Assembly (NCBI GenBank): GCA_030615625.1
Contig: JAUWYX010000002.1
Location: 11,995 to 75,994 of the forward strand
Direction of reading: 5' to 3'
Length of the DNA stretch: 64,000 bases
Source of the DNA: Dehalococcoidia bacterium
GTDB lineage: Bacteria > Chloroflexota > Dehalococcoidia > GIF9 > AB-539-J10
The notes beneath the pieces are model-generated. The model was not told the DNA's origin and ran no database searches. It was given only the letters and a program-made list of their open reading frames with translations. The position numbers and the translations under genes were made by a program. Positions 4,109 through 54,029 of the stretch are shown piece after piece (position 1 is the first letter of the stretch; each line of letters opens with the position of its first letter).

Positions 4109-4484
4109 ATCTTAAGGGTAACTCACTTCAATCAACTGCACAATCACCCAAAAGTATCAATTTGATTAGAAAATGGTACTGGGAAAAAAGTCCTGGATTG
4201 GTAAAATTGGTAAGAAAGGTTAAGTTAGGTATATTGACTTCCTTTTGAAAAAGTGCTACTCTTATACATATTATTCCCATAAGTATTATGAATAATCTAC
4301 GCAAAGGAACACTAAGAGAGCGATTGCGTAAGTTCGCGGGAGTGCGAGTTGTGTGGTCGGGGAAAGCTGATGGCGGGCAAATGCATGTGTAAGGGAGGAT
4401 AGGCCGAAAGTTCTGTTGCCGTTTTATGTGTGAGGAGGCAGTGAAGCTGAGCCTGTAGCTGGTCGCTTGGGCTCGGTGGAGCTA

Positions 4485-4527
4485 ATAGCGAAACCGACCT
4501 TAAAGGTTAGTTTCGCTTTTGTGTTTA
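4485..4527 (+). terminator. Hairpin plus U-tract in the leader immediately upstream of the regulator gene (possible attenuator)
   Basis: AGCGAAAC..ACCTT-AAGGT..GTTTCGCT extended stem followed by TTTTGTGTTT, ending about 10 nt before the ATG at 4537. About 400 bp of untranslated leader precedes it. Confidence 0.3.
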
Positions 4528-4536
4528 GTGAAAGGG

Positions 4537-5247
4537 ATGAAAGTTCTGGTTGTTAGCCATTCGCAAGACTTATCGCAAGCTATTTCCCCTATCCTGAGAG
4601 TAAGATGGCCAGACTTAAGTTTAGTCCATGTCAACCAAGCCACGGAAAGCCTGGAGCTGATACATAGAGAACAGCCAGACATCGTTATGTTTTACCTCCC
4701 TGAGCGAAGCGAAGGAGCACCACCCCTGAACTGCTTTGACCTCATAAGCCGGATTCGCAGCTTCTCCGGTGTGCCCCTCATTGTTATTAGCCAGAGCGAT
4801 GATATCATGGACAAGGTAAAAGCTCTGGAGATGGGTGCCGATGACTGGGTGTCCCCATCTTTCAGCCCCATGGAGTTTATTGCCAAGGTCAATGCTATTC
4901 TCCGCCGCCGCTCCCCCCATAAGCCTGGTGTTTCCTTTTTCCTGAATGGCAAGCTATCTATAAATTACGACGCTCGCCAAGTACGCATCTCGGGAAAGCC
5001 AGTGAAGCTAACCCCTATTCAATATAAACTCCTTTGTCATTTAATCAAGAACCAGGGAAGGGTATGCAGCGCCGCCGAGTTGCTCCAGCATATCTGGGGG
5101 CCGAACTATAGTGATGAGAGAGAACTCCTGAAGCTGAGTGTTTATCGTTTGAGGTCTAAAATCGAGGAAAACCCCTCGGCCCCAGAAATCATTTTCAATG
5201 AAAGAGGCATAGGCTACGTCATTAGGGCCTCCAGTTCGAGTGGGTAG
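4537..5247 (+). CDS. OmpR/PhoB-family winged-helix regulator with aspartate-less (pseudo-)receiver domain
   Basis: C-terminal trans_reg_C domain (LTPIQYKLLCHLIKNQGRVCSAAELL...YRLRSKIE). The receiver fold is present but the acidic pocket is degenerate: VVSHSQD instead of DD, DIVMFYLPE puts Tyr at the phospho-Asp position, and DWVSPSF has Ser at the conserved Lys. Start chosen at MKVLVV with an AAGGGA SD; the ORF track starts 18 nt earlier. Confidence 0.7.
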   Translation: MKVLVVSHSQDLSQAISPILRVRWPDLSLVHVNQATESLELIHREQPDIVMFYLPERSEGAPPLNCFDLISRIRSFSGVPLIVISQSDDIMDKVKALEMGADDWVSPSFSPMEFIAKVNAILRRRSPHKPGVSFFLNGKLSINYDARQVRISGKPVKLTPIQYKLLCHLIKNQGRVCSAAELLQHIWGPNYSDERELLKLSVYRLRSKIEENPSAPEIIFNERGIGYVIRASSSSG

Positions 5248-5250
5248 AGA

Positions 5251-5475
5251 CACTCCCCTTGTCATTGTGAAGCTCCTCCCCCTGAGTCCTAAACAAATCC
5301 AAATGTCAAAATCCCAATGACAACCGAAATCTAAATACTGAAATGCCAAAACTACTTCGTTTTGTCATTTAGATTTTGAGCTTGCTTTGATATTTATGCC
5401 TTGTCATTTGTCATTGCTTAGCATTCAGGATTTGGTGTCCGAGATTGCTTCACTTCGTTCGCAATGACATAGAGA
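5251..5475. repeat. Cluster of MITE-like elements/fragments (TTGTCATTGC...GCAATGACA terminal inverted repeats) in the intergenic region
   Basis: CTTGTCATTGTGAAG (5251) ... CCAATGACAAC (5296); TTTGTCATTT (5361); TTGTCATTTGTCATTGCTTAG (5401) ... GAGATTGCTTCACTTCGTTCGCAATGACATAGAG (5440-5475). Same family as 17586-17689 and the array inside mfd. Confidence 0.5.
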
Positions 5476-10341: not shown

Positions 10342-10642
10342 GTATGAAAGAGCAAAAGACAAATCCCAACTACAAAATCCCAATGCCCAAAACAGTTTTG
10401 AATAACGTCATCGCCAGGGGCGAAACTCCGATGCAATCTTGGGGGAGGGACAATGAAATTACCAAGCATCGACGAGTCAGAACTCAGAATGACAAAAAAT
10501 GCTTCACAAGTTTAGTGCGCGGGCTTAGCCTCGTGCGGCACGACCCTGAAGGGTCGCACTACAGAAATCTGGCGCGGAGGCTAAAGCAGAAACGAAGATT
10601 GACACCTTGGTTTTTACTCTTTAGAATAGGGAGATAAAGCTG

Positions 10643-12247: not shown

Positions 12248-12419
12248 AAATAGTGCTAACCCGCGATGTAGACTAGAAGCTACATTGCCCAGTGTATAGC
12301 GACCAAGCAACGCCCAAGGTAACCATGAGATTGCTTCGTCTCGATAAATCGGGACTCGCAAAGACAGAGGGGAATTACCAACTCTATGCAGAGTCAGCTT
12401 TCAGGCAGGTTCAGGCACA

Positions 12420-12673: not shown

Positions 12674-13615
12674 TCATTCAACTACAATGTAGCGGTCCTC
12701 CCCTGTCCCCAAGCCATGCCTCAAAGCTGTCCTGACCTGGGGTAACTGCCAGGGGTCCGCCACGAGCTTGTTATTGGCCTCATAAGCCAAGAGCACTTTA
12801 ATCGCTTCGACATCAATAGCCACAAGGTCCCCGGAAGCAAGCACCACTTCAGGCTCCGCCAACTGGCCCTTGGCAGGACCACCTGAAACGAAGGCCTTTC
12901 TGCCATCCATGATTATGAGATTTGGTTGCCAGCACAGGCTGATTTCCGCAATCTTTTGCTCCAAGTGGCGAGCGTGAAGAGCACGCCGTTCGCCAGGGTG
13001 CACAAAGCCTACCGCAAGCTTCAGCGCCCCCGAAAATCGTGCCAAAATATGGGTTTTCAGGCAGGGCAGGTATACTATCTTGTCAGCTTCATAGGCTGAG
13101 CGTGGCATGGAAACAGAGCTCAGATAGTCCCCATTAACCTTGACCCTTACCCAATCATCAGGTTTATCATCGAAAGCAATGAGCTCCACCCCCAGATCAC
13201 GCGCTAACTCAAAAATACCCAGTTTCCTGAACACTTTGCTGGTGGGTCTCCATATCCCACCGGAGCTTTCGCCTATTGTAACTTTTGCTCCCGCTTCCAG
13301 GAGGAGTTCGACTACGGCGCGCAGAAACACCAGGTCGGTAGAGCCAGGATACGGGTCCTGGCTGTTAAAATTTGGCTTAAGCAGAACCCTGTCGCCCTTG
13401 TCTATAACCGGCTCCAGGGAACCCAGCAGTGCGATGGCCCTATCAATAGCAGCCTTGATGTCTCCACCTGCCTTCACCTTAGCCACCAGAGCCTGGCCAT
13501 TTCTGAGCCAGGGGTTGGCAGGGCGAGGCCTGGGGTCAACAAGCGGAATATCCCTGGGCGCCCTATCAGTGAGGAAGTGATAAACCCCGGCAATCTTATC
13601 TCCAAAATCCGTCAT
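12674..13615 (-). CDS. DUF362-family protein (inserted between mfd and an orphan mfd 3' copy)
   Basis: LLKPNFNSQDPYPGSTDLVFLRAVVE and the C-terminal block resemble the DUF362 fold. Start set at ATG 13615 with an AAGGAGG SD; the ORF track extends to 13657. Confidence 0.55.
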   Translation of the reverse strand: MTDFGDKIAGVYHFLTDRAPRDIPLVDPRPRPANPWLRNGQALVAKVKAGGDIKAAIDRAIALLGSLEPVIDKGDRVLLKPNFNSQDPYPGSTDLVFLRAVVELLLEAGAKVTIGESSGGIWRPTSKVFRKLGIFELARDLGVELIAFDDKPDDWVRVKVNGDYLSSVSMPRSAYEADKIVYLPCLKTHILARFSGALKLAVGFVHPGERRALHARHLEQKIAEISLCWQPNLIIMDGRKAFVSGGPAKGQLAEPEVVLASGDLVAIDVEAIKVLLAYEANNKLVADPWQLPQVRTALRHGLGTGEDRYIVVE

Positions 13616-13706
13616 TTGTGTTCCTCCTTGCGAACGGCAACTCTTAAGTCCTGCCATGCTCGTAACAAGTTTTTGGTTTTCAAATATTTGTGCATTTCAG
13701 CAACCT

Positions 13707-16700
13707 CTAATTAGACCTCAGTATCTCCACCAGCACCTCTGACCATCTGTCCCCCAGGAGCCTGGTGTCTAACTTGATCTGCGTGGCACCTATTTTAACT
13801 GCGCCATCAACAGGGCTGGTAACTATCAGCCGGCGGCCATCGGTTTGGGGCTTTATCACAATTTGCCTTCCCTGTGTGGAAATAGAGCTTACCTCGGCCC
13901 ACGTAGCCAGAACCTTGATTTTCACCACGTAAAGAAGATTTTCCACAGGCTTAGGCAAAGGACCAAATCTATCTTTGAATTCTCGAGCCATGTCCTCTAC
14001 TTCCTCGATATGCTCCACCCTGGCCAGTCTGTGGTAAAGGCTTAATCGAGTATTTAGATTGGAAACATACTCTTCCGGTATGTGGGCGGCTAAAGGCAGG
14101 GATATGCTGGGCAATTCCTTCGCTTCGCTCGTAATGACACTCTTCCTCACTTCGCCAGCTTGCTTTGCTTTCAACTCCTCCACTGCCTCAGCCAGTAACT
14201 GGCAATAAAGGTCAAAGCCCAGGGCGGCGATATGCCCGCTTTGCTTGACCCCTAAAAGATTGCCCGCTCCCCGAATTTCCAGGTCCTTCATAGCAATACC
14301 AAATCCCGAACCCAGTTCGGTAGCCTCGAAGATAGTCCTGAGCCTCTTATAAGCCTGGGGGGTTAGCTGCCTCCCCTCGTCAAAGAAGAAATAAGCATAA
14401 GCCTGGTTGATACCGCGGCCCACCCTGCCCCTCAACTGATAAAGCTGAGCCAGGCCGAACCTGTCAGCCCGGTCAATAATCAGCGTATTAACATTAGGCA
14501 TATCCAGACCTAATTGGATAATAGTGGTGGTCACCAGAATATCATACTTGCCAGCGATAAAATCCGTCATGACTTTTTCCAATTGCTCTTCAGGCATTCG
14601 CCCATGAGCTATAGCTATTCGAGCTTCGGGCACTAAATCCTGTAATTTGCTGGCAGCTAAAGCAATGCTCTGAACGCGGTTATGGACAAGGAAGACTTGA
14701 CCATTCCTCTCCAGTTCACGCAATACCACCTGCCTGACCAGAGTGCCATCGTAAACCCCGACATAGGTCTGGACAGACAGGCGTTCTTCAGGAGGCGTTT
14801 CCACAATGCTCATATCCCTGATTCCGGTTAAAGACATGTGAAGGGTGCGCGGGATGGGAGTAGCGCTAAGAGCCAGGGTATCCACTTCCTTCCTTATCTG
14901 CTTGAGTTTCTCCTTCTGCACCACGCCAAACTGTTGTTCTTCATCGATTATTACCACTCCCAGGTCTTTGAATTTGATGTCTTTTTGCAACAGGCGATGA
15001 GTGCCGATACATATATCCACAGTGCCATTGGCTAAGCCTTCAAGGACTTCCCTTTCTTTTTCCGGGGGACAGAAGCGGCTCAGCATTTCTACTCTTAAAG
15101 GAAAGGTTTGCAACCTCTCGGTAAAGGTAATGAAATGCTGTTGAGCCAGCACGGTGGTCGGGACCAGAATAGCTACTTGTTTGTTATCCATAACCGCCTT
15201 AAAAGCAGCACGCAATGCTATTTCGGTTTTGCCATAGCCCACGTCGCCACAGATAAGCCGGTCCATGGGCTTGGCTTTCTCCATGTCCTCTTTAACCGTC
15301 ATGATTGCCTCAATCTGGTCCGGCGTTTCCATATAAGGAAATGATGCCTCTAGCTCCTGTTGCCATAGTGAATCTTCACAGAAGGCGAAGCCGGGAGCTA
15401 CCTCCCGAGCAGCATAAAGGTCAAGTAGTTCCTGAGCAATTTCCGCCACCGATTCTTTAACCCTTTTCTTGGTCCTTTGCCATTCCGGGGTTCTCAAACG
15501 GCTCAAGTGTGGTGCCTGGTCGCCAGCACCGATATAGCGGCTGACGCGGCCTATCCGTTCAGTAGGCACATAGAGCCTGTCACCAGCGGCATACTCTAAA
15601 ACAAGGTATTCTCTCTCTACTCCATCGGAGGACATCCTGGCCAGACCGTGGAACTTGGCGATGCCATGGTCAACGTGGACGACATAATCGCCGGGGGCTA
15701 ACTGAGGAAGAAACCATTGGTGAGGTATTGGCCTCTTCTTGCCCGCTCGCGGCTGCTTCACAAAGCCAAAGAGCTCGGCATCAGTGATAAGGGTCAGCCT
15801 GTCATCCATTACCCAGCCTCCGTCCAGCGAGCCCTGGAGTACGGTGATTGAACCGGGCGGAGGTATCTGTACTATCTCTGATGCCGGCGAAGTATGAATG
15901 TCCTCTTTCTGGAGAAGTTCAGCCAACCGATTTGCTTGATGGCTAATTACGACCACGCGCTGTCTTTGTTCCACCATTTGCTTGGCTGTTTTGAGGAACC
16001 TTTCCAACTGACTGCCATAACTCTGAGCTCTGATGAAGGGCAAAGCCTGTCCATAACTCTGGGCGGCATCCCATGTTGCCAGCGCCAAAAAAAGAGCACC
16101 TTTCCTTCCTCTATCCCCTTCTTTCATCTGAGACTCTAATTCCTCCCAGGTGAGGTAAGGAGAGGGAAAGTCCTCAGGCAACTCGCCTCTTTCCATCTTT
16201 GTGGCTCTTAATTCTTGAGTTTCTTCGTTTAGCCTGGTGACGACAAGTTCAATTCCTTCAGGGTCATCGAGAACGAGCAAGGCCTCACCGCCAAGGTAGT
16301 CAAGGACGCTTCCAGCCACCACCTCAGAGCTATCAGCCATTGGCATAAATTCTCTAGCCGGGGTGACAATCAACGAGGATACGGGGCTGGCTGAGCGTTG
16401 GCTTTCCGGGTCGAAGCATCTCATGCTCTCTATCTGGTCGCCGAAGAACTCTATGCGAACTGGCAACTGGCTGCAAGGGGGAAAGACATCAATAATGCCA
16501 CCCCGTTTGCTTATCTGCCCGGGCAACTCGACAACGTCCTCCATTTCGTAGCCCATGCTTTGCCATCGGCGCAGTAGCTCCAGTGGCTCAGCAGCCACGC
16601 CTGGCTCCAAAATATGACAGGCAGCCACAAAATCCCTTTGCGGGATGGTTTTACTCATGATTGCCAGGGCCGAGGTTACTACCAAGGGAGGTTTTGTCAC

Positions 16701-17201
16701 CCTTTCTTTTCCATCATTGCAAGACTCACCTCCCCCTCCGTCATTGCGAGGCACGCCTTCTTTTTCGTCATTGAAAGCCACCGTTTCCCCTGTCATTGCG
16801 AGTCCCGATTTATCGGGACGAAGCAATCTCGGTGGGGCATGGAGGGGCTGGTAAAGGGCCAAGGTGGCTAATGCCCTCAACCTCTCCAGCATCTGATAGC
16901 TGATAGCTGAGAGCTGAGAGCTATCATAAGGCAGGAAGTCGAGCTCAGGGAGACGATGCAACTCGGCCGAAGGGGAACACCAGGCTCGAAGCTGCTCATG
17001 AAGCTTTCGGGCAGTCTCAGGCTGACCAGTCACCACCATGAGGGGCAAATCGAGCTCTTCGTAAAGAGCGGCAATCAAATAGGGCTTGGCAGCATCGAGT
17101 ATGATTGCCTTATGCTCACCTTTGGCTGTGGACAGCTCCCCCACCAGTTGCCTGTAGGCAGGCATTTCTTTGAGCAAAGAAAGCAAACAAGAGAGATTCA
17201 T
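13707..17201 (-). CDS. mfd: Transcription-repair coupling factor Mfd, carrying an in-frame about 50-aa insertion encoded by a MITE-like repeat array
   Basis: 1164 aa; UvrB-homology N-terminus, RNAP-interaction domain, DEAD/helicase motifs (GDVGYGKTEIALRAAF, DEEQQFGV), TRG motif and C-terminal D7. Residues about 108-160 (RLLRPDKSGLAMTGETVAFNDEKEGVPRNDGGGGESCNDGKERVTKPP) are translated from GTCATTGCGAG repeats. Confidence 0.85.
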   Translation of the reverse strand: MNLSCLLSLLKEMPAYRQLVGELSTAKGEHKAIILDAAKPYLIAALYEELDLPLMVVTGQPETARKLHEQLRAWCSPSAELHRLPELDFLPYDSSQLSAISYQMLERLRALATLALYQPLHAPPRLLRPDKSGLAMTGETVAFNDEKEGVPRNDGGGGESCNDGKERVTKPPLVVTSALAIMSKTIPQRDFVAACHILEPGVAAEPLELLRRWQSMGYEMEDVVELPGQISKRGGIIDVFPPCSQLPVRIEFFGDQIESMRCFDPESQRSASPVSSLIVTPAREFMPMADSSEVVAGSVLDYLGGEALLVLDDPEGIELVVTRLNEETQELRATKMERGELPEDFPSPYLTWEELESQMKEGDRGRKGALFLALATWDAAQSYGQALPFIRAQSYGSQLERFLKTAKQMVEQRQRVVVISHQANRLAELLQKEDIHTSPASEIVQIPPPGSITVLQGSLDGGWVMDDRLTLITDAELFGFVKQPRAGKKRPIPHQWFLPQLAPGDYVVHVDHGIAKFHGLARMSSDGVEREYLVLEYAAGDRLYVPTERIGRVSRYIGAGDQAPHLSRLRTPEWQRTKKRVKESVAEIAQELLDLYAAREVAPGFAFCEDSLWQQELEASFPYMETPDQIEAIMTVKEDMEKAKPMDRLICGDVGYGKTEIALRAAFKAVMDNKQVAILVPTTVLAQQHFITFTERLQTFPLRVEMLSRFCPPEKEREVLEGLANGTVDICIGTHRLLQKDIKFKDLGVVIIDEEQQFGVVQKEKLKQIRKEVDTLALSATPIPRTLHMSLTGIRDMSIVETPPEERLSVQTYVGVYDGTLVRQVVLRELERNGQVFLVHNRVQSIALAASKLQDLVPEARIAIAHGRMPEEQLEKVMTDFIAGKYDILVTTTIIQLGLDMPNVNTLIIDRADRFGLAQLYQLRGRVGRGINQAYAYFFFDEGRQLTPQAYKRLRTIFEATELGSGFGIAMKDLEIRGAGNLLGVKQSGHIAALGFDLYCQLLAEAVEELKAKQAGEVRKSVITSEAKELPSISLPLAAHIPEEYVSNLNTRLSLYHRLARVEHIEEVEDMAREFKDRFGPLPKPVENLLYVVKIKVLATWAEVSSISTQGRQIVIKPQTDGRRLIVTSPVDGAVKIGATQIKLDTRLLGDRWSEVLVEILRSN
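16690..16860. repeat. Array of four GTCATTGCGAG-type repeat units plus a TCCCGATAAATCGGGA hairpin, in frame inside mfd
   Basis: CCATCATTGCAAG / CCGTCATTGCGAG / TCGTCATTGAAAG / TGTCATTGCGAGTCCCGATTTATCGGGACGAAGCAATCTC. A related copy at 12325-12375 (CTTCGTCTCGATAAATCGGGACTCGCAAAGACAGAGGGG). Confidence 0.55.
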
Positions 17202-17533: not shown

Positions 17534-17585
17534 TCTATCACCTCCTTACACATCCAGATTTTTTGTATTTGCCTGATTTATCAGG

Positions 17586-17689
17586 CCCTCCGCTTTTTGT
17601 CATTGCGAGCCCCGACTTGTCGGGGCGTGGCAATCTCATTGCCTTCCCACCCAGATTGCTTCGTCACTTCGCTCCTCGCAATGACAAAG
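17586..17689. repeat. MITE-like element with 14-bp perfect terminal inverted repeats
   Basis: TTTGTCATTGCGAG at the left end and CTCGCAATGACAAA at the right end. Internal hairpin CCCCGAC-TTGT-CGGGGC and a GATTGCTTCGTCACTTCG motif shared with the copy at 5440. Confidence 0.6.
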
Positions 17690-17833
17690 GGGAAGCCCAA
17701 CGAATTGGGCAACTACATTTTTAGACTGCCAATATATTATGTCAACTAAACAGGGGTTCTTTCGCCCCCACTCATCGGAGAACCTCTGTGTTTAGTTCTA
17801 TTTTACCAGCAATGATAAAATAACTAGAAATAT

Positions 17834-38689: not shown

Positions 38690-38915
38690 CGAACTGTTGA
38701 GGCAGGACATAGTGCTTAAAAGGACTCTTAATTTGGTTTTGGGGTTCGCACTTTTACAAGCCCGCTTCTTTTCTCAGGATTTTGGCCTTGTCCGTTCTCT
38801 CCCAGGGCAGGTCGAGGTCTTCCCTGCCAAAATGCCCATAAGTGGCGGTTTGGCGGTAAATGGGGCGTCGCAGGTCCAAAGTCTTTATGATAGCCTCAGG
38901 GCGAAAGTCGCCCTC
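38690..38915 (-). pseudogene. Orphan diverged duplicate of the metK 3' end (last ~55 codons plus ~60 nt downstream)
   Basis: About 220 nt at about 85% identity to 41535-41755 (TGTT.AGGCAGGACATA.TGCT.A.AGGACTCTT.A.TTGGTTTTGG...CCTCAGGGCGAAAGTCG). Confidence 0.6.
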
Positions 38916-41345: not shown

Positions 41346-41598
41346 GCGACTCACCTTGCCAAACACAAAAACACAAAGTCCGCCTACGAGCAGTTAAGAT
41401 AGGGGCACACTATAACAGCTTTGTTCACACTGGTTCACCCCTTGATTATTCAGGTGCCCACTGAGGTTCTAAGTTAACTTCTTAATTATAGCACAATATG
41501 CTGAAATATAGGTAAGCCTGGAAATGCACAAGTAATGAATTGTTAAGGCAGGACATAATGCTAAGAGGACTCTTGACTTGGTTTTGGAATTCGGCCTT

Positions 41599-42810
41599 TT
41601 ACAAGCCGGCTTCTTTTCTTAGAATTTCGGCCTTATCCGTCCTCTCCCAGGACAGGTTGAGGTCTTCCCTGCCAAAGTGCCCGTAAGTAGCAGTTTGGCG
41701 GTAAATGGGGCGGCGCAGGTCCAAAGTCCTTATGATAGCCTCAGGGCGAAAGTCGAAATGCTTGTTTATGAGATTTAATATGATTTCATCAGAGACTTTT
41801 CCCGTGCTGGATGTCTCGATGGATAATGACAGGGGATGGGCTTTCCCGATAGCATAGGCAACCTGAAGCTCAAGGTAATCAGCAAGTCCGGCAGCCACTA
41901 TATTCTTGACGACATATCTGGCCATATAAGAGGCGGAGCGGTCTACCTTGGTGGGGTCCTTGCCTGAAAAGCAGCCCCCACCATGCCCACAGGCACTGCC
42001 ATAAGTATCAGCAATGATTTTGCGCCCGGTAAAACCGGTGTCGCTCACCGGCCCGCCAATGACAAACTGACCGGCGCTGTTAATGTAGTATTCAGTCTCA
42101 CTATCCAGCAAATTGGCGGGAATGACCTTCTTAATCACTTGCTCTATAAGGTCGTGCTCGATGATTTTACGTTCCACCCCCGGGTCGTGATGAGCACCAA
42201 GAACAACACAGACCACCCTCTTGGGTATGCCATGACTATACTCTATGGTTACCTGAGCTTTGCCATCGGGCCTGAGATAAGGCACGACCCCCTCTTTTCT
42301 TACCTGAGCCAGGCTCCGGCATAGCTTGTGTGCCAGTGTAATAGGCAAAGGCATGAGCTCAGGAGTTTCTCTACAGGCAAAGCCAACCATCATTCCCTGG
42401 TCACCAGCACCAGTTTTGTCTAAAACTTCGTCAGTTGCCTCTCCTATTCTTGTTTCTAAAGATTGACCAACCCCGGCAGCAATGTCGCTTGACTGCTCCT
42501 TCACTGAGACGAGGACTCCACAGGTCCGATAATCAAAGCCATATTCGGGTTTGGTATAGCCTGCCTCTTTGATTACCTGGCGTACCAGGTTGGGAATTTC
42601 CACATAGCAATCACAGGTAATCTCACCGAGAACCATCACCATGCCCATGGCCACAGAGACTTCGCAGGCTACCCGAGCGAAGGGGTCCTGTGCCAGCATG
42701 GCATCAAGGACAGCGTCTGAAATCTGGTCGCATAGCTTATCAGGATGTCCCTCGGTGACGCACTCCGCAGTGGCTAAATAAGAATCCGACTGATTGAAGC
42801 TATTCGGCAT
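41599..42810 (-). CDS. metK: S-adenosylmethionine synthetase
   Basis: [35 protein letters not shown]. Confidence 0.9.
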
Positions 42811-46315: not shown

Positions 46316-46336
46316 TCTACGCCTCCTGTACAGCTC

Positions 46337-46469
46337 GACATCGTCGCATTAGATTATAACTGCTCAAATTCTCCTTGTCATTGCGTCCCCTAATTTGACC
46401 GTCTCCCCTAGCTAATGCTAAACTATTTTCGGGCAGCGTAGCTCAGGGGTAGAGCAGAGGACTCATAAT
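46337..46469 (+). repeat. Direct repeat DR1: copy of the tRNA(CAU) upstream region plus tRNA 5' half (through the anticodon)
   Basis: 133 bp, about 98% identical to 53638-53771. 46433-46469 = GGCAGCGTAGCTCAGGGGTAGAGCAGAGGACTCATAA. Identity ends exactly after CATAA in the anticodon loop. Confidence 0.8.
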
Positions 46470-46748
46470 TCTAAGCTAGATGTCCCAAATGGTCCCTTTA
46501 CCTATAAAATAGAGCCTTTGTGTCAATTACCAAAACCCCGTTTTGCTCGTGAAGTCCCGTTATGTCCCAACCCATCCCAAACAATTTAACGCCAAAATAA
46601 CGCCAATTTTTCAGGTATGGCCTGAAGCTAACGGAACGACAATAGCGATAATACCATAGCAATAAAAACAACAATGATGATAACAACGATAATATCTAAA
46701 TGTGATATGAAATTTTCGGCTAGGGATTGACGTAGCGCTAAGTTTTAC

Positions 46749-53637: not shown

Positions 53638-53650
<13 letters not shown>
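53394..53650 (-). pseudogene. 5'-truncated fragment of an RCC1-like repeat protein gene
   Basis: Minus-strand translation ..DVGGWTDITEVAAGGYHTVGLRSDGTVVAVGDNLYGQCDVGSWSDIIQVAASIEHTVGLKSDGTVVAVGWNDYGKCNVGGWDLN*. There is no start codon; an in-frame stop sits immediately 5' within DR2. Confidence 0.5.
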
Positions 53651-53806
<156 letters not shown>

Positions 53807-54029
53807 CTTATTGTTTCACTCATAGCGATACTGGTAGGGTGAACGCCACAAACCTAAGTCGCTTATTTTATTTGGTTATTAATATTAATGAGATAGACAT
53901 CACTCTCTGTTTTCTAATGCCCCTTTTCATGTCATGGAAAAATTCAAACATTCTAAATGAATTTACAAAACCCCTAATGCTTGCTATAAACTAGTTTTGA
54001 TGATAATGTTGGTTGCTTAAACTTAAATA

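Follow-up and report, generated by a model that had tools for sequence, protein, structure and literature searches.

The 64,000-nucleotide stretch of Dehalococcoidia bacterium contig JAUWYX010000002.1 that was analysed here (the window) carries, inside mfd, the gene for the transcription-repair coupling factor, a segment of a mobile-type palindromic repeat that is translated in frame and adds a strain- or lineage-specific loop of about 50 residues to the protein. That much had been claimed in an annotation made from the letters of the window alone (the original prediction), and it was confirmed. The account that we hold to be very probably correct is that a selfish repeat, similar in behaviour to repetitive extragenic palindromic (REP) sequences and Rickettsia palindromic elements (RPEs), entered a permissive, disordered loop of Mfd domain D1a, was translated because it was compatible with the frame and free of stops, and then diversified, with alleles still segregating; Mfd itself most likely remains functional.

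The host gene is identified as mfd because its product contains the full ordered set of Pfam domains above cut-offs: UvrB_inter (residues 198-285), CarD_TRCF_RID (501-557), DEAD (626-787), Helicase_C (826-929) and TRCF (1035-1119), which represent the UvrB-homology module, the RNA polymerase-interacting domain, the superfamily 2 translocase and D7 in the order expected of Mfd. A PDB search matched the protein to the solved mycobacterial and E. coli Mfd structures (E values of 4e-223 and 5e-200). Translation of 13707..17201 meets neither a stop nor a frameshift, the latter being the sign by which a disrupted mfd was to be recognised, and the peptide RLLRPDKSGLAMTGETVAFNDEKEGVPRNDGGGGESCNDGKERVTKPP, which had been predicted to be read without interruption, occurs exactly in the stop-free open reading frame (ORF).

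The original prediction described four tandem units and a hairpin within the insert. Four GTCATTGCGAG-type motifs are indeed found on the + strand (at 16713 and 16767 with two mismatches each, at 16740 and 16792 with none), spaced by 27, 27 and 25 nt, and the perfect hairpin is present, but only one of the units is complete and three are end fragments; the mfd segment combines a single palindromic unit with a short array of end fragments and does not contain four equal units. The complete unit of ~40 nt is 93% identical to the copy at 12327-12370 and reads, in the mfd sense, GAGATTGCTTCG, hairpin, then CTCGCAATGAC, giving the peptide RLLRPDKSGLAMT. It is predicted to fold into an outer stem (ATTGC/GCAAT), an internal loop and a 7-bp inner stem that closes a 4-nt loop (z = -3.2); by sequence, the inner hairpin is an 8-bp palindrome, GTCCCGAT/ATCGGGAC, around TT. 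Variants of the hairpin stem stay complementary, with GAT/ATC in the window and GAC/GTC both in one related contig (L004) and in the copy at 17610-17625. Each truncated end unit is preceded on the + strand by a pyrimidine-rich tail, which in the mfd sense is a purine-rich tail of 14-16 nt, and the three are translated as CNDG.., RNDG.. and FNDE... The remnant of a dimer central loop, 20 nt long, is 95% complementary to 17646-17665 inside the intergenic dimer described below, and its loop ccccaccgAGATTGC recurs in many metagenome copies of the repeat. By inspection, five of the six frames can be read through the core motifs, the sole stop arising from ..TCG CAA TGA.., and translation through the element is therefore easy; an example of an insert-derived tryptic peptide is SGLAMTGETVAFNDEK. 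When Tandem Repeats Finder was applied to 16500-17000, the 27-nt units were not called because they are too divergent, and only an unrelated heptamer array was reported. At 16893-16922 (aa ~93-103), mfd contains 4.3 copies of a heptanucleotide tandem repeat, CTGAGAG/CTGATAG, which is translated as SSQLSAISYQ and kept in all orthologues.

Table 1. Location of mfd, its insert and other repeat features in the window.
Feature	Position	Strand	Description
mfd (transcription-repair coupling factor)	13707..17201	minus	Intact stop-free ORF of 1164 aa; Pfam and PDB matches
Repeat-derived in-frame insert	16695..16850	minus	Codons Q118-T169, 52 aa, stop-free; net +48 aa relative to empty alleles
Complete palindromic unit	16792..16829	+	GTCATTGCGAG + hairpin + C + GAAGCAATCT; exact pattern match
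Inner perfect hairpin TCCCGATTTATCGGGA	16803..16818		Extends to GTCCCGAT-TT-ATCGGGAC at 16802-16819; sequence and fold
Three truncated end units (ATCATTGCAAG, GTCATTGCGAG, GTCATTGAAAG)	16713..16791	+	25-27 nt each; motif matches
Remnant of dimer central loop (CGGTGGGGCATGGAGGGGCTG)	16830..16850	+	Translated as QPLHAPP
Intergenic inverted dimer	17596..17688		Units at 17599-17636 (+) and 17653-17685 (-); 93 bp
Composite insertion	17565..17735		Dimer nested between inverted GTAG/GTAT-tagged REP-like hairpins; absent in L003/L004
Singleton hairpin-bearing unit, intergenic	12328..12365	minus	12327-12370 is 93% complementary to 16787-16830
Short-spacer unit, intergenic	5442..5468	minus	Its partner end, at 5261-5271, is degenerate
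Degenerate dimer of the family	10407..10498		73% complementary to 17594-17685
Probable relic of the unit, D6-D7 linker	14112..14138	minus	GTCATTACGAG-TGAAGC-...; one-mismatch motif match

When composite units were defined as GTCATTGCGAG, a spacer of 3-32 nt and GAAGCAATCT, with at most two mismatches per motif, six were found in the window (5442-5468, 10407-10439, 12328-12365, 16792-16829, 17599-17636 and 17653-17685) as against a mean of 0.33 and a maximum of 2 in shuffled sequences; the observation is therefore real and non-random. The units at 5442-5468 (- strand) and 12327-12370 account for the family copies that had been announced near 5251-5475 and 12325-12375. A bona fide MITE, or miniature inverted-repeat transposable element, of 104 bp had been placed at 17586-17689, and this is the intergenic dimer: its ends are perfect over 14 bp as predicted (17596-17609 and 17675-17688), but it measures 93 bp, shows no target duplication, and belongs to a family for which no transposase was found beside the copies at the loci searched. 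The dimer folds into a single long hairpin (-24.6 kcal/mol, z = -5.9). The composite insertion that contains it was delimited by alignment of the Thiamine_BP/Inositol_P intergenic region of six genomes, and the same alignment of empty and filled versions revealed no target-site duplication at that spacer.

Two other kinds of short repeat keep company with the palindromic units. GTAG/GTAT-tagged REP-like hairpins (GTAGTTGCC-loop-GGC) constitute a second family at 17565-17586, 17695-17716 and 2121-2143; of the two that flank the intergenic dimer in inverted orientation, both are present in L002 and L006, one in L007 and none in L003 and L004. Repeats of the AAATCC(C)AAA type (…caaatcccaactacaaaatcccaatg…) adjoin palindromic units at 5290-5330 and 10360-10395 of the window and at the metagenome loci L135, L138 and L157, and may be a third associated repeat.

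The segment varies among relatives. A protein search yielded 120 clusters of orthologues at 80-100% identity, belonging to Dehalococcoidia or Chloroflexota wherever named, and DNA was compared across seven related contigs, of which the closest (L002) encodes an Mfd with 91% identity. Alignment of the relatives, the check proposed for strain or lineage specificity, bore the idea out: 88 of the 120 orthologues lack the insert and read LALYE-(E/G/K)(S/N/G)(D/G)KPPLVVTSA uninterrupted, while 32 have extra sequence at exactly this position. The filled orthologues display at least 12 architectures of 26-79 aa, including a half element without the hairpin (LLRHAVPRNDKQEG), hairpin-bearing forms with two, three or four end units, a compound with a second repeat family (GTCATTCTGAG...GAAGAATCT) that is translated as CHSE...EES...FRVTK, and this second family on its own. 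The number of end units ranges from one to four among orthologues, the four-unit allele of the window being the longest single-family form retrieved, and the window differs from L002 cleanly by one 27-nt (9-codon) unit. In alignment with filled versions, the DNA of the empty site is CTTTATGA joined directly to AGGGAGCGATAAACC. Filled (L002) and empty (L007) alleles were recovered from one sample. In a distance tree computed after removal of the insert columns, filled and empty alleles are scattered, and the nearest neighbour of the window allele (P0003) is empty; presence of the insert is nearly unlinked to flanking residues, and the association is gone beyond the junction residues.

Misassembly of a repeat-rich metagenome bin could create such a picture by putting the repeat into mfd, or mfd could truly be disrupted, and it is the case that the data are metagenomic throughout and that many near-identical copies can mislead assemblers. 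This explanation is nevertheless extremely unlikely, since independent JGI, ENA and NCBI sample assemblies have related inserts at one and the same codon and keep the frame, and in the window the insert has unique mfd sequence on both flanks and an ORF with no stop or frameshift.

It is also very unlikely, if a shade less so, that the segment is an ancestral lineage-specific domain of Mfd and the empty alleles are deletions. The scattered presence across the tree would agree with this, as would the edge residues common to insert alleles (YQPLHSPP... and ...RVTK/IKVDK), most of which may stem from one event, but the empty alleles are uniform and contain no remnant, and the segment is built of a repeat that has many non-coding copies. 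Distant Mfds also speak against it: when representatives at 50% identity were searched exhaustively with the first 420 residues as the query, Mfds with 30-57% identity nearly always had 36-45 aa where the window has 88, from which it follows that the short loop is ancestral and the insert derived. No segment homologous to the insert, the finding by which the original prediction was to be overturned, was met among these distant Mfds.

The insert lies in a part of the protein where extra residues can be accommodated. Structure prediction had been suggested as a check for a surface loop, and an AlphaFold2 model of residues 1-420 (mean predicted local distance difference test score, pLDDT, of 86.5; predicted template modelling score, pTM, of 0.85) gives a disordered one: residues 117-171 are coil with pLDDT 46-59 between helix 102-116 and strand 172-177, and the flanks are confident (pLDDT 85-97). 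Residues 96 and 182 of the query align with residues 82 and 114 of E. coli Mfd, with 85 aa between these anchors in the query versus 31 aa in E. coli, which places the insert in the helix-strand loop of D1a at about E. coli residues 98-104, just before D2. The strand after the insert aligns to UvrB residues ~132-136. D1a adjoins D2, the UvrA-binding domain of Mfd. Other lineages have unrelated repeat-like inserts in this same loop (P0135, P0175, P0178, P0186, P0189 and P0216), indicating that the loop is permissive and not specifically targeted; the premise that the region is normally compact thus applies to most distant Mfds, which have the short loop, but not to these lineages.

The analysis shows which repeat this is, that it is present in some relatives and absent from others, that the short loop is ancestral, that disorder is predicted and that the number of units varies; the mechanism of mobilisation, slippage as the route of expansion, and neutrality are inferred. 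A non-coding palindromic repeat with a unit of ~40 nt, (T/C)GTCATTGCGAG-variable hairpin-GAAGCAATCT, would have landed between the last helix and the last strand of D1a and, with a net length that is a multiple of three and a core free of stops, would simply have been translated. Selection would purge only the disruptive copies, and the survivors would be those in a solvent-exposed, disordered, tolerant loop. The 27-nt end unit, equal to nine codons, might then grow and shrink by slippage or unequal exchange, while more repeats (the inner hairpin and the second family GTCATTCTGAG...GAAGAATCT) might nest into the insert and other parts be deleted. Filled and empty alleles now occur side by side in the population, and recombination, or gain and loss over and over, would reshuffle them. 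Mobilisation might be accomplished by some enzyme acting in trans, or other copies might have served as donors in recombination or gene conversion.

Between the window and L002, the insert has six nonsynonymous and two synonymous codon changes and the rest of the gene has 86 and 122, an excess that is suggestive of relaxed constraint on the insert peptide, although the counts are small. It is unlikely that the loop is instead adaptive, tuning UvrA recruitment, autoinhibition or the interaction of Mfd with RNA polymerase, or that it partially cripples Mfd and confers a mutator or altered-repair phenotype, a possibility that has been raised in speculation about REPs in repair genes. One might argue for such an effect from the abundance of insert alleles (32 of 120 clusters, always in frame), from the border that D1a shares with the UvrA-binding domain, and from the intragenic metagenome matches of the hairpin-bearing unit, for among the matches listed four of ten are in mfd and one more is in a gene for an MrfA-like repair helicase; mfd is moreover a repair gene, as are uvrA, uvrB, uvrD and recBCD, which have been found tagged with REPs (PMC3733652). 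However, the insert occurs in at least 12 architectures and lengths with no peptide conserved beyond the repeat cores, it is predicted to be disordered, it is absent from the nearest tree neighbours and most of the clade, and its changes are mostly nonsynonymous. The D1a loop is host to unrelated repeats elsewhere, the repeat resides in unrelated enzymes, and there is an ascertainment bias in that full-length matches retrieve only in-frame alleles. The further suggestion of the original prediction, that the insert may modulate Mfd interactions, found no support, and the pattern looks neutral. Mfd most likely still works, the insert being a passenger and not an adaptation; it is unlikely to alter what Mfd does and is probably harmless.

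Removal of the segment after transcription or translation, in the manner of an intron or intein, would leave mature Mfd without it, and a strongly palindromic element could form an RNA hairpin, but this is the least probable explanation of all, to the point of being negligible: no Rfam intron or other RNA family matches, no intein or extra Pfam domain is present, length and sequence vary freely, and non-coding copies dominate. An intein or self-splicing intron was accordingly rejected as a candidate, with neither a splicing domain in Pfam nor a match in Rfam.

Several considerations weigh against insertion of a selfish repeat as the explanation. Every sequence used is a metagenome assembly, and the structure is a prediction built on a shallow alignment. 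Alignment of empty and filled DNA at mfd disclosed no target-site duplication and no clean element boundary; the boundaries at both polymorphic sites are blurred by pyrimidine-rich microhomology, and transposition at mfd is not demonstrated because neither a target duplication nor a boundary can be defined. No candidate transposase was found beside the copies in the neighbourhoods of at least 120 cross-phylum loci, whole genomes not having been searched. The scatter on the tree could come equally well from repeated insertion at a hotspot, from precise deletion or from recombination, and the contrast of nonsynonymous and synonymous changes consists of eight changes in the insert and is not significant by itself.

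The repeat family extends far beyond the window. With one genome per species, the exact 21-base core GTCATTGCGAG-N(6-30)-GAAGCAATCT was found at 120 or more loci in at least 15 phyla. The matches listed include Chloroflexota, Patescibacteria, Bacteroidota (Pedobacter, Chryseobacterium, Hymenobacter), Planctomycetota, Omnitrophota, Desulfobacterota, Atribacterota, Bacillota, Ignavibacteriota, and Alpha- and Gammaproteobacteria, as well as an exact unit in a Candidatus Tisiphia (Rickettsiaceae) genome (L079). The inner spacer varies from 6 to 30 nt across phyla and is frequently a hairpin itself, and among the cross-phylum matches listed about one third of units (51 of 152) have an inverted partner within 110 nt. 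The metagenome matches listed for the hairpin-bearing unit comprise 115 copies with full flanks, which show no conservation beyond +/-1 nt; an inverted partner accompanies 46 of them (40%) and 60% are singletons, extra upstream end motifs like those in mfd are found in 14, and the preceding base is T in at least 70%. Flanks that are not conserved and these counts of partners indicate that the repeating entity is the hairpin unit of ~40 nt, often dimerised. The tags seen in the window are cCGTCATTGC (16738-), tTCGTCATTG and cTGTCATTGC (16790-), and tTGTCATTGC (17597-).

No specific gene family recurs beside the copies at the loci searched (at least 120), with the exception of generic ABC ATPases and histidine kinases; an apparent UvrA cluster at 11 loci was rejected because it consists of the generic ABC ATPases, and a second cluster consists of the histidine kinases. 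At four of these loci (L080, L082, L106 and L110), recG is in the same 8-kb locus as a unit, ~0.1-4.4 kb away, which exceeds the single-copy expectation, but distance and orientation vary and in L080 the gene appears split into three ORFs; the proximity is probably due to chance. Rfam has no family for the element at gathering or permissive thresholds, and a literature search with exact DNA and peptide strings of the repeat retrieved unrelated primer matches only.

Among the matches listed, ~8% of copies (12 of 150 and 10 of 122) are located in long open frames. In other phyla the identifiable hosts are GMP synthase (GuaA), an ATP-dependent DNA ligase, a PfkB kinase and a PD-(D/E)XK nuclease; in related metagenomes they are TilS, an MrfA/Hrq1-like helicase and, four times, mfd. 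For GuaA, the DNA ligase, PfkB, TilS and the MrfA-like helicase, the repeat is translated and relatives lack it at that place, as is typical of RPEs. Judging by these sequences, residing in frame is something that the family does generally. A bolder proposal, which can be offered only tentatively and is rather doubtful, is that (T/C)GTCATTGCGAG-hairpin-GAAGCAATCT may represent a pan-bacterial REP-like element not described before. It would have kept 21 invariant bases in at least 15 phyla, Patescibacteria, Bacteroidota, Proteobacteria and Chloroflexota among them, and would write itself into proteins again and again, as at the several sites of such repeats in Mfd of this Dehalococcoidia clade. 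If this were true, the pan-bacterial core would imply a conserved recognition system, either a widespread trans-acting enzyme or a host factor, unless the pattern came about by ongoing horizontal spread, and the coexisting filled and empty alleles of mfd would be a natural system in which to study the mobility of the element and its effect on transcription-coupled repair.

At the protein level, the 120 Mfd orthologues have at least six more polymorphic in-frame indel sites of repeat type. Numbered by query residues, these include ~285 (DPALNLVECWA), ~365-383 (the heptamer-type allele LLNAVSYQLSA, an alternative in some orthologues that resembles the heptamer peptide SSQLSAISYQ), ~484, ~556, ~1015-1026 (SSLNLSLEGRGIGEG; VIAVSQSPEHGEGEAKQ) and ~1120 (ETVIAVSRSPEHGEGEAKQSLS, which is the palindromic unit in its third reading frame). 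Several, for example ETVIAVSRSPEHGEGEAKQSLS and SSLNLSLEGRGIGEG, are clearly repeat-derived by their peptides. In the window, the D6-D7 linker reads SVITSEAKE at residues 1021-1029 (VITSEAKE at 1022-1029), encoded by GTCATTACGAG... at 14128-14138, where orthologues read VIASEAKQ and some have an additional hairpin (VIAVSQSPEHGEGEAKQ). This linker sequence is probably an old, fixed copy of the unit, a conclusion drawn from motif similarity and short of proof.

The 3′ end of mfd is duplicated: 12419-12528 matches 13709-13818 (110 nt, 89% identical) on the far side of the downstream DUF362 gene (12674-13657, - strand). The duplicate codes for another version of the final ~40 Mfd residues (…TEVLEEILSSN) and is absent from the seven related loci. 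It suggests that the DUF362 cassette came by recombination or integration at the mfd end, where gene content differs in every relative. Elsewhere in the window, a cyclic-di-GMP-II riboswitch aptamer at 4425-4508 (+ strand; Rfam RF01786, 61.5 bits, above the gathering score) is directly upstream of a response-regulator ORF (4519-5247; Response_reg and Trans_reg_C). A tRNA-Met gene (53735-53807) is accompanied by five copies of a 33-nt match to its 3′ end (GGTTCAAATCCAGCCGCTGCCA) between 56169 and 62783, one every 0.5-3 kb, and a 155-nt repeat (92%; 46336-46490 and 53639-53793, 7.3 kb apart) overlaps its 5′ region; it looks as if mobile elements had integrated at tRNA-Met one after another. A 194-nt direct repeat (89%) at 38717-38910 and 41562-41755, 2.85 kb apart, is preceded by a 33-nt repeat (82%).

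The insert in mfd is a clean, well-controlled case from nature in which new protein sequence arises from a selfish palindromic repeat: a single codon position in a repair factor of the essential type is empty, filled, expanded or compound among close, co-occurring strains. The phenomenon of RPEs and REPs in repair genes is extended to free-living Chloroflexota and to Mfd. The D1a helix-strand loop (~E. coli 98-104) and the D6-D7 linker are marked as permissive sites, which is of use to anyone wishing to tag or engineer Mfd. In annotation, inserts of this kind account for odd length variation and for spurious "hypothetical" peptides (LAMT, RNDG, VIASEAKQS, CHSE...). The broader interest is in the conservation across phyla of a 21-base core for which neither a description nor an Rfam family was found.

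The description of the insertion as uncommon can be accepted only in a relative sense: in-frame palindromic repeats in repair genes are already documented as RPEs and REPs (PMC3733652, PMC10969869), and the present family is in frame in other genes as well. The finding is mildly new, the phenomenon being known already as in Rickettsia; what is newer is the host, Mfd of a free-living Dehalococcoidia lineage, together with the picture of multiple sites and multiple alleles in one gene and the breadth of the family. RPEs are likewise short selfish palindromes that are translated in frame within conserved protein genes and have many non-coding copies (PMC10969869), at sites that are compatible with the fold and polymorphic between relatives. 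In mfd, similarly, the repeat is part of the translated frame, it is missing at that site in relatives, and the AlphaFold2 prediction puts it at a permissive, fold-compatible position. The likeness is one of behaviour between apparently different sequence families: RPEs are ~100-150 bp long and their hosts are obligate intracellular bacteria, whereas the unit here is ~40 nt and its dimer ~93 nt, the host lineage is free-living, most copies are intergenic (~8% intragenic) and the family spans many phyla.

CGTC-tagged REPs have intragenic copies in uvrA, uvrB, uvrD, recBCD and polA (Di Nocera et al. 2013, PMC3733652), to which the location of the insert in D1a-D2-D1b, the UvrB-homology module of Mfd, is a parallel. 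Like them, the unit opens with (C/T)GTC, has a stem that starts with A-T pairs directly after this CGTC/TGTC tag (ATTGC...GCAAT) and a short unpaired tail (PMC3733652), forms inverted dimers, has no transposase that was found near its copies and occurs in frame in DNA-repair genes; the peptides of alphaproteobacterial CGTC-3 (VIAGLDPAIH, ...PAMT) resemble VIAS...EAKQS and ...LAMT here. In contrast, the CGTC families, whose listed hosts do not include Chloroflexi, possess one 8-9-bp stem that closes a 4-5-nt loop, and a 3-nt tail (PMC3733652), while the stem here is divided: its outer part is 5 bp long and is followed by an internal loop and by an inner hairpin that varies from 6 to 30 nt. Not one motif or peptide string of the repeat turns up in the supplements of that study, and the relation is one of resemblance, not of demonstrated membership.

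Bacterial MITEs (Correia, ERIC, Nezha and the QMITEs of Coxiella) are also small, non-coding, multi-copy and polymorphic between strains (PMC10969869, PMC5896051) and now and then form in-frame fusions with host ORFs, and the 14-bp ends of the dimer qualify as terminal inverted repeats (TIRs). The mfd copy, however, consists of one arm and end fragments only; 60% of copies among the matches listed are single arms instead of TIR pairs, target-site duplications (TSDs) are missing at the two polymorphic sites, and no parent insertion sequence or transposase with matching ends was found near the copies. The repeat behaves in the manner of REPs and RPEs rather than as a classic TIR-plus-TSD MITE.

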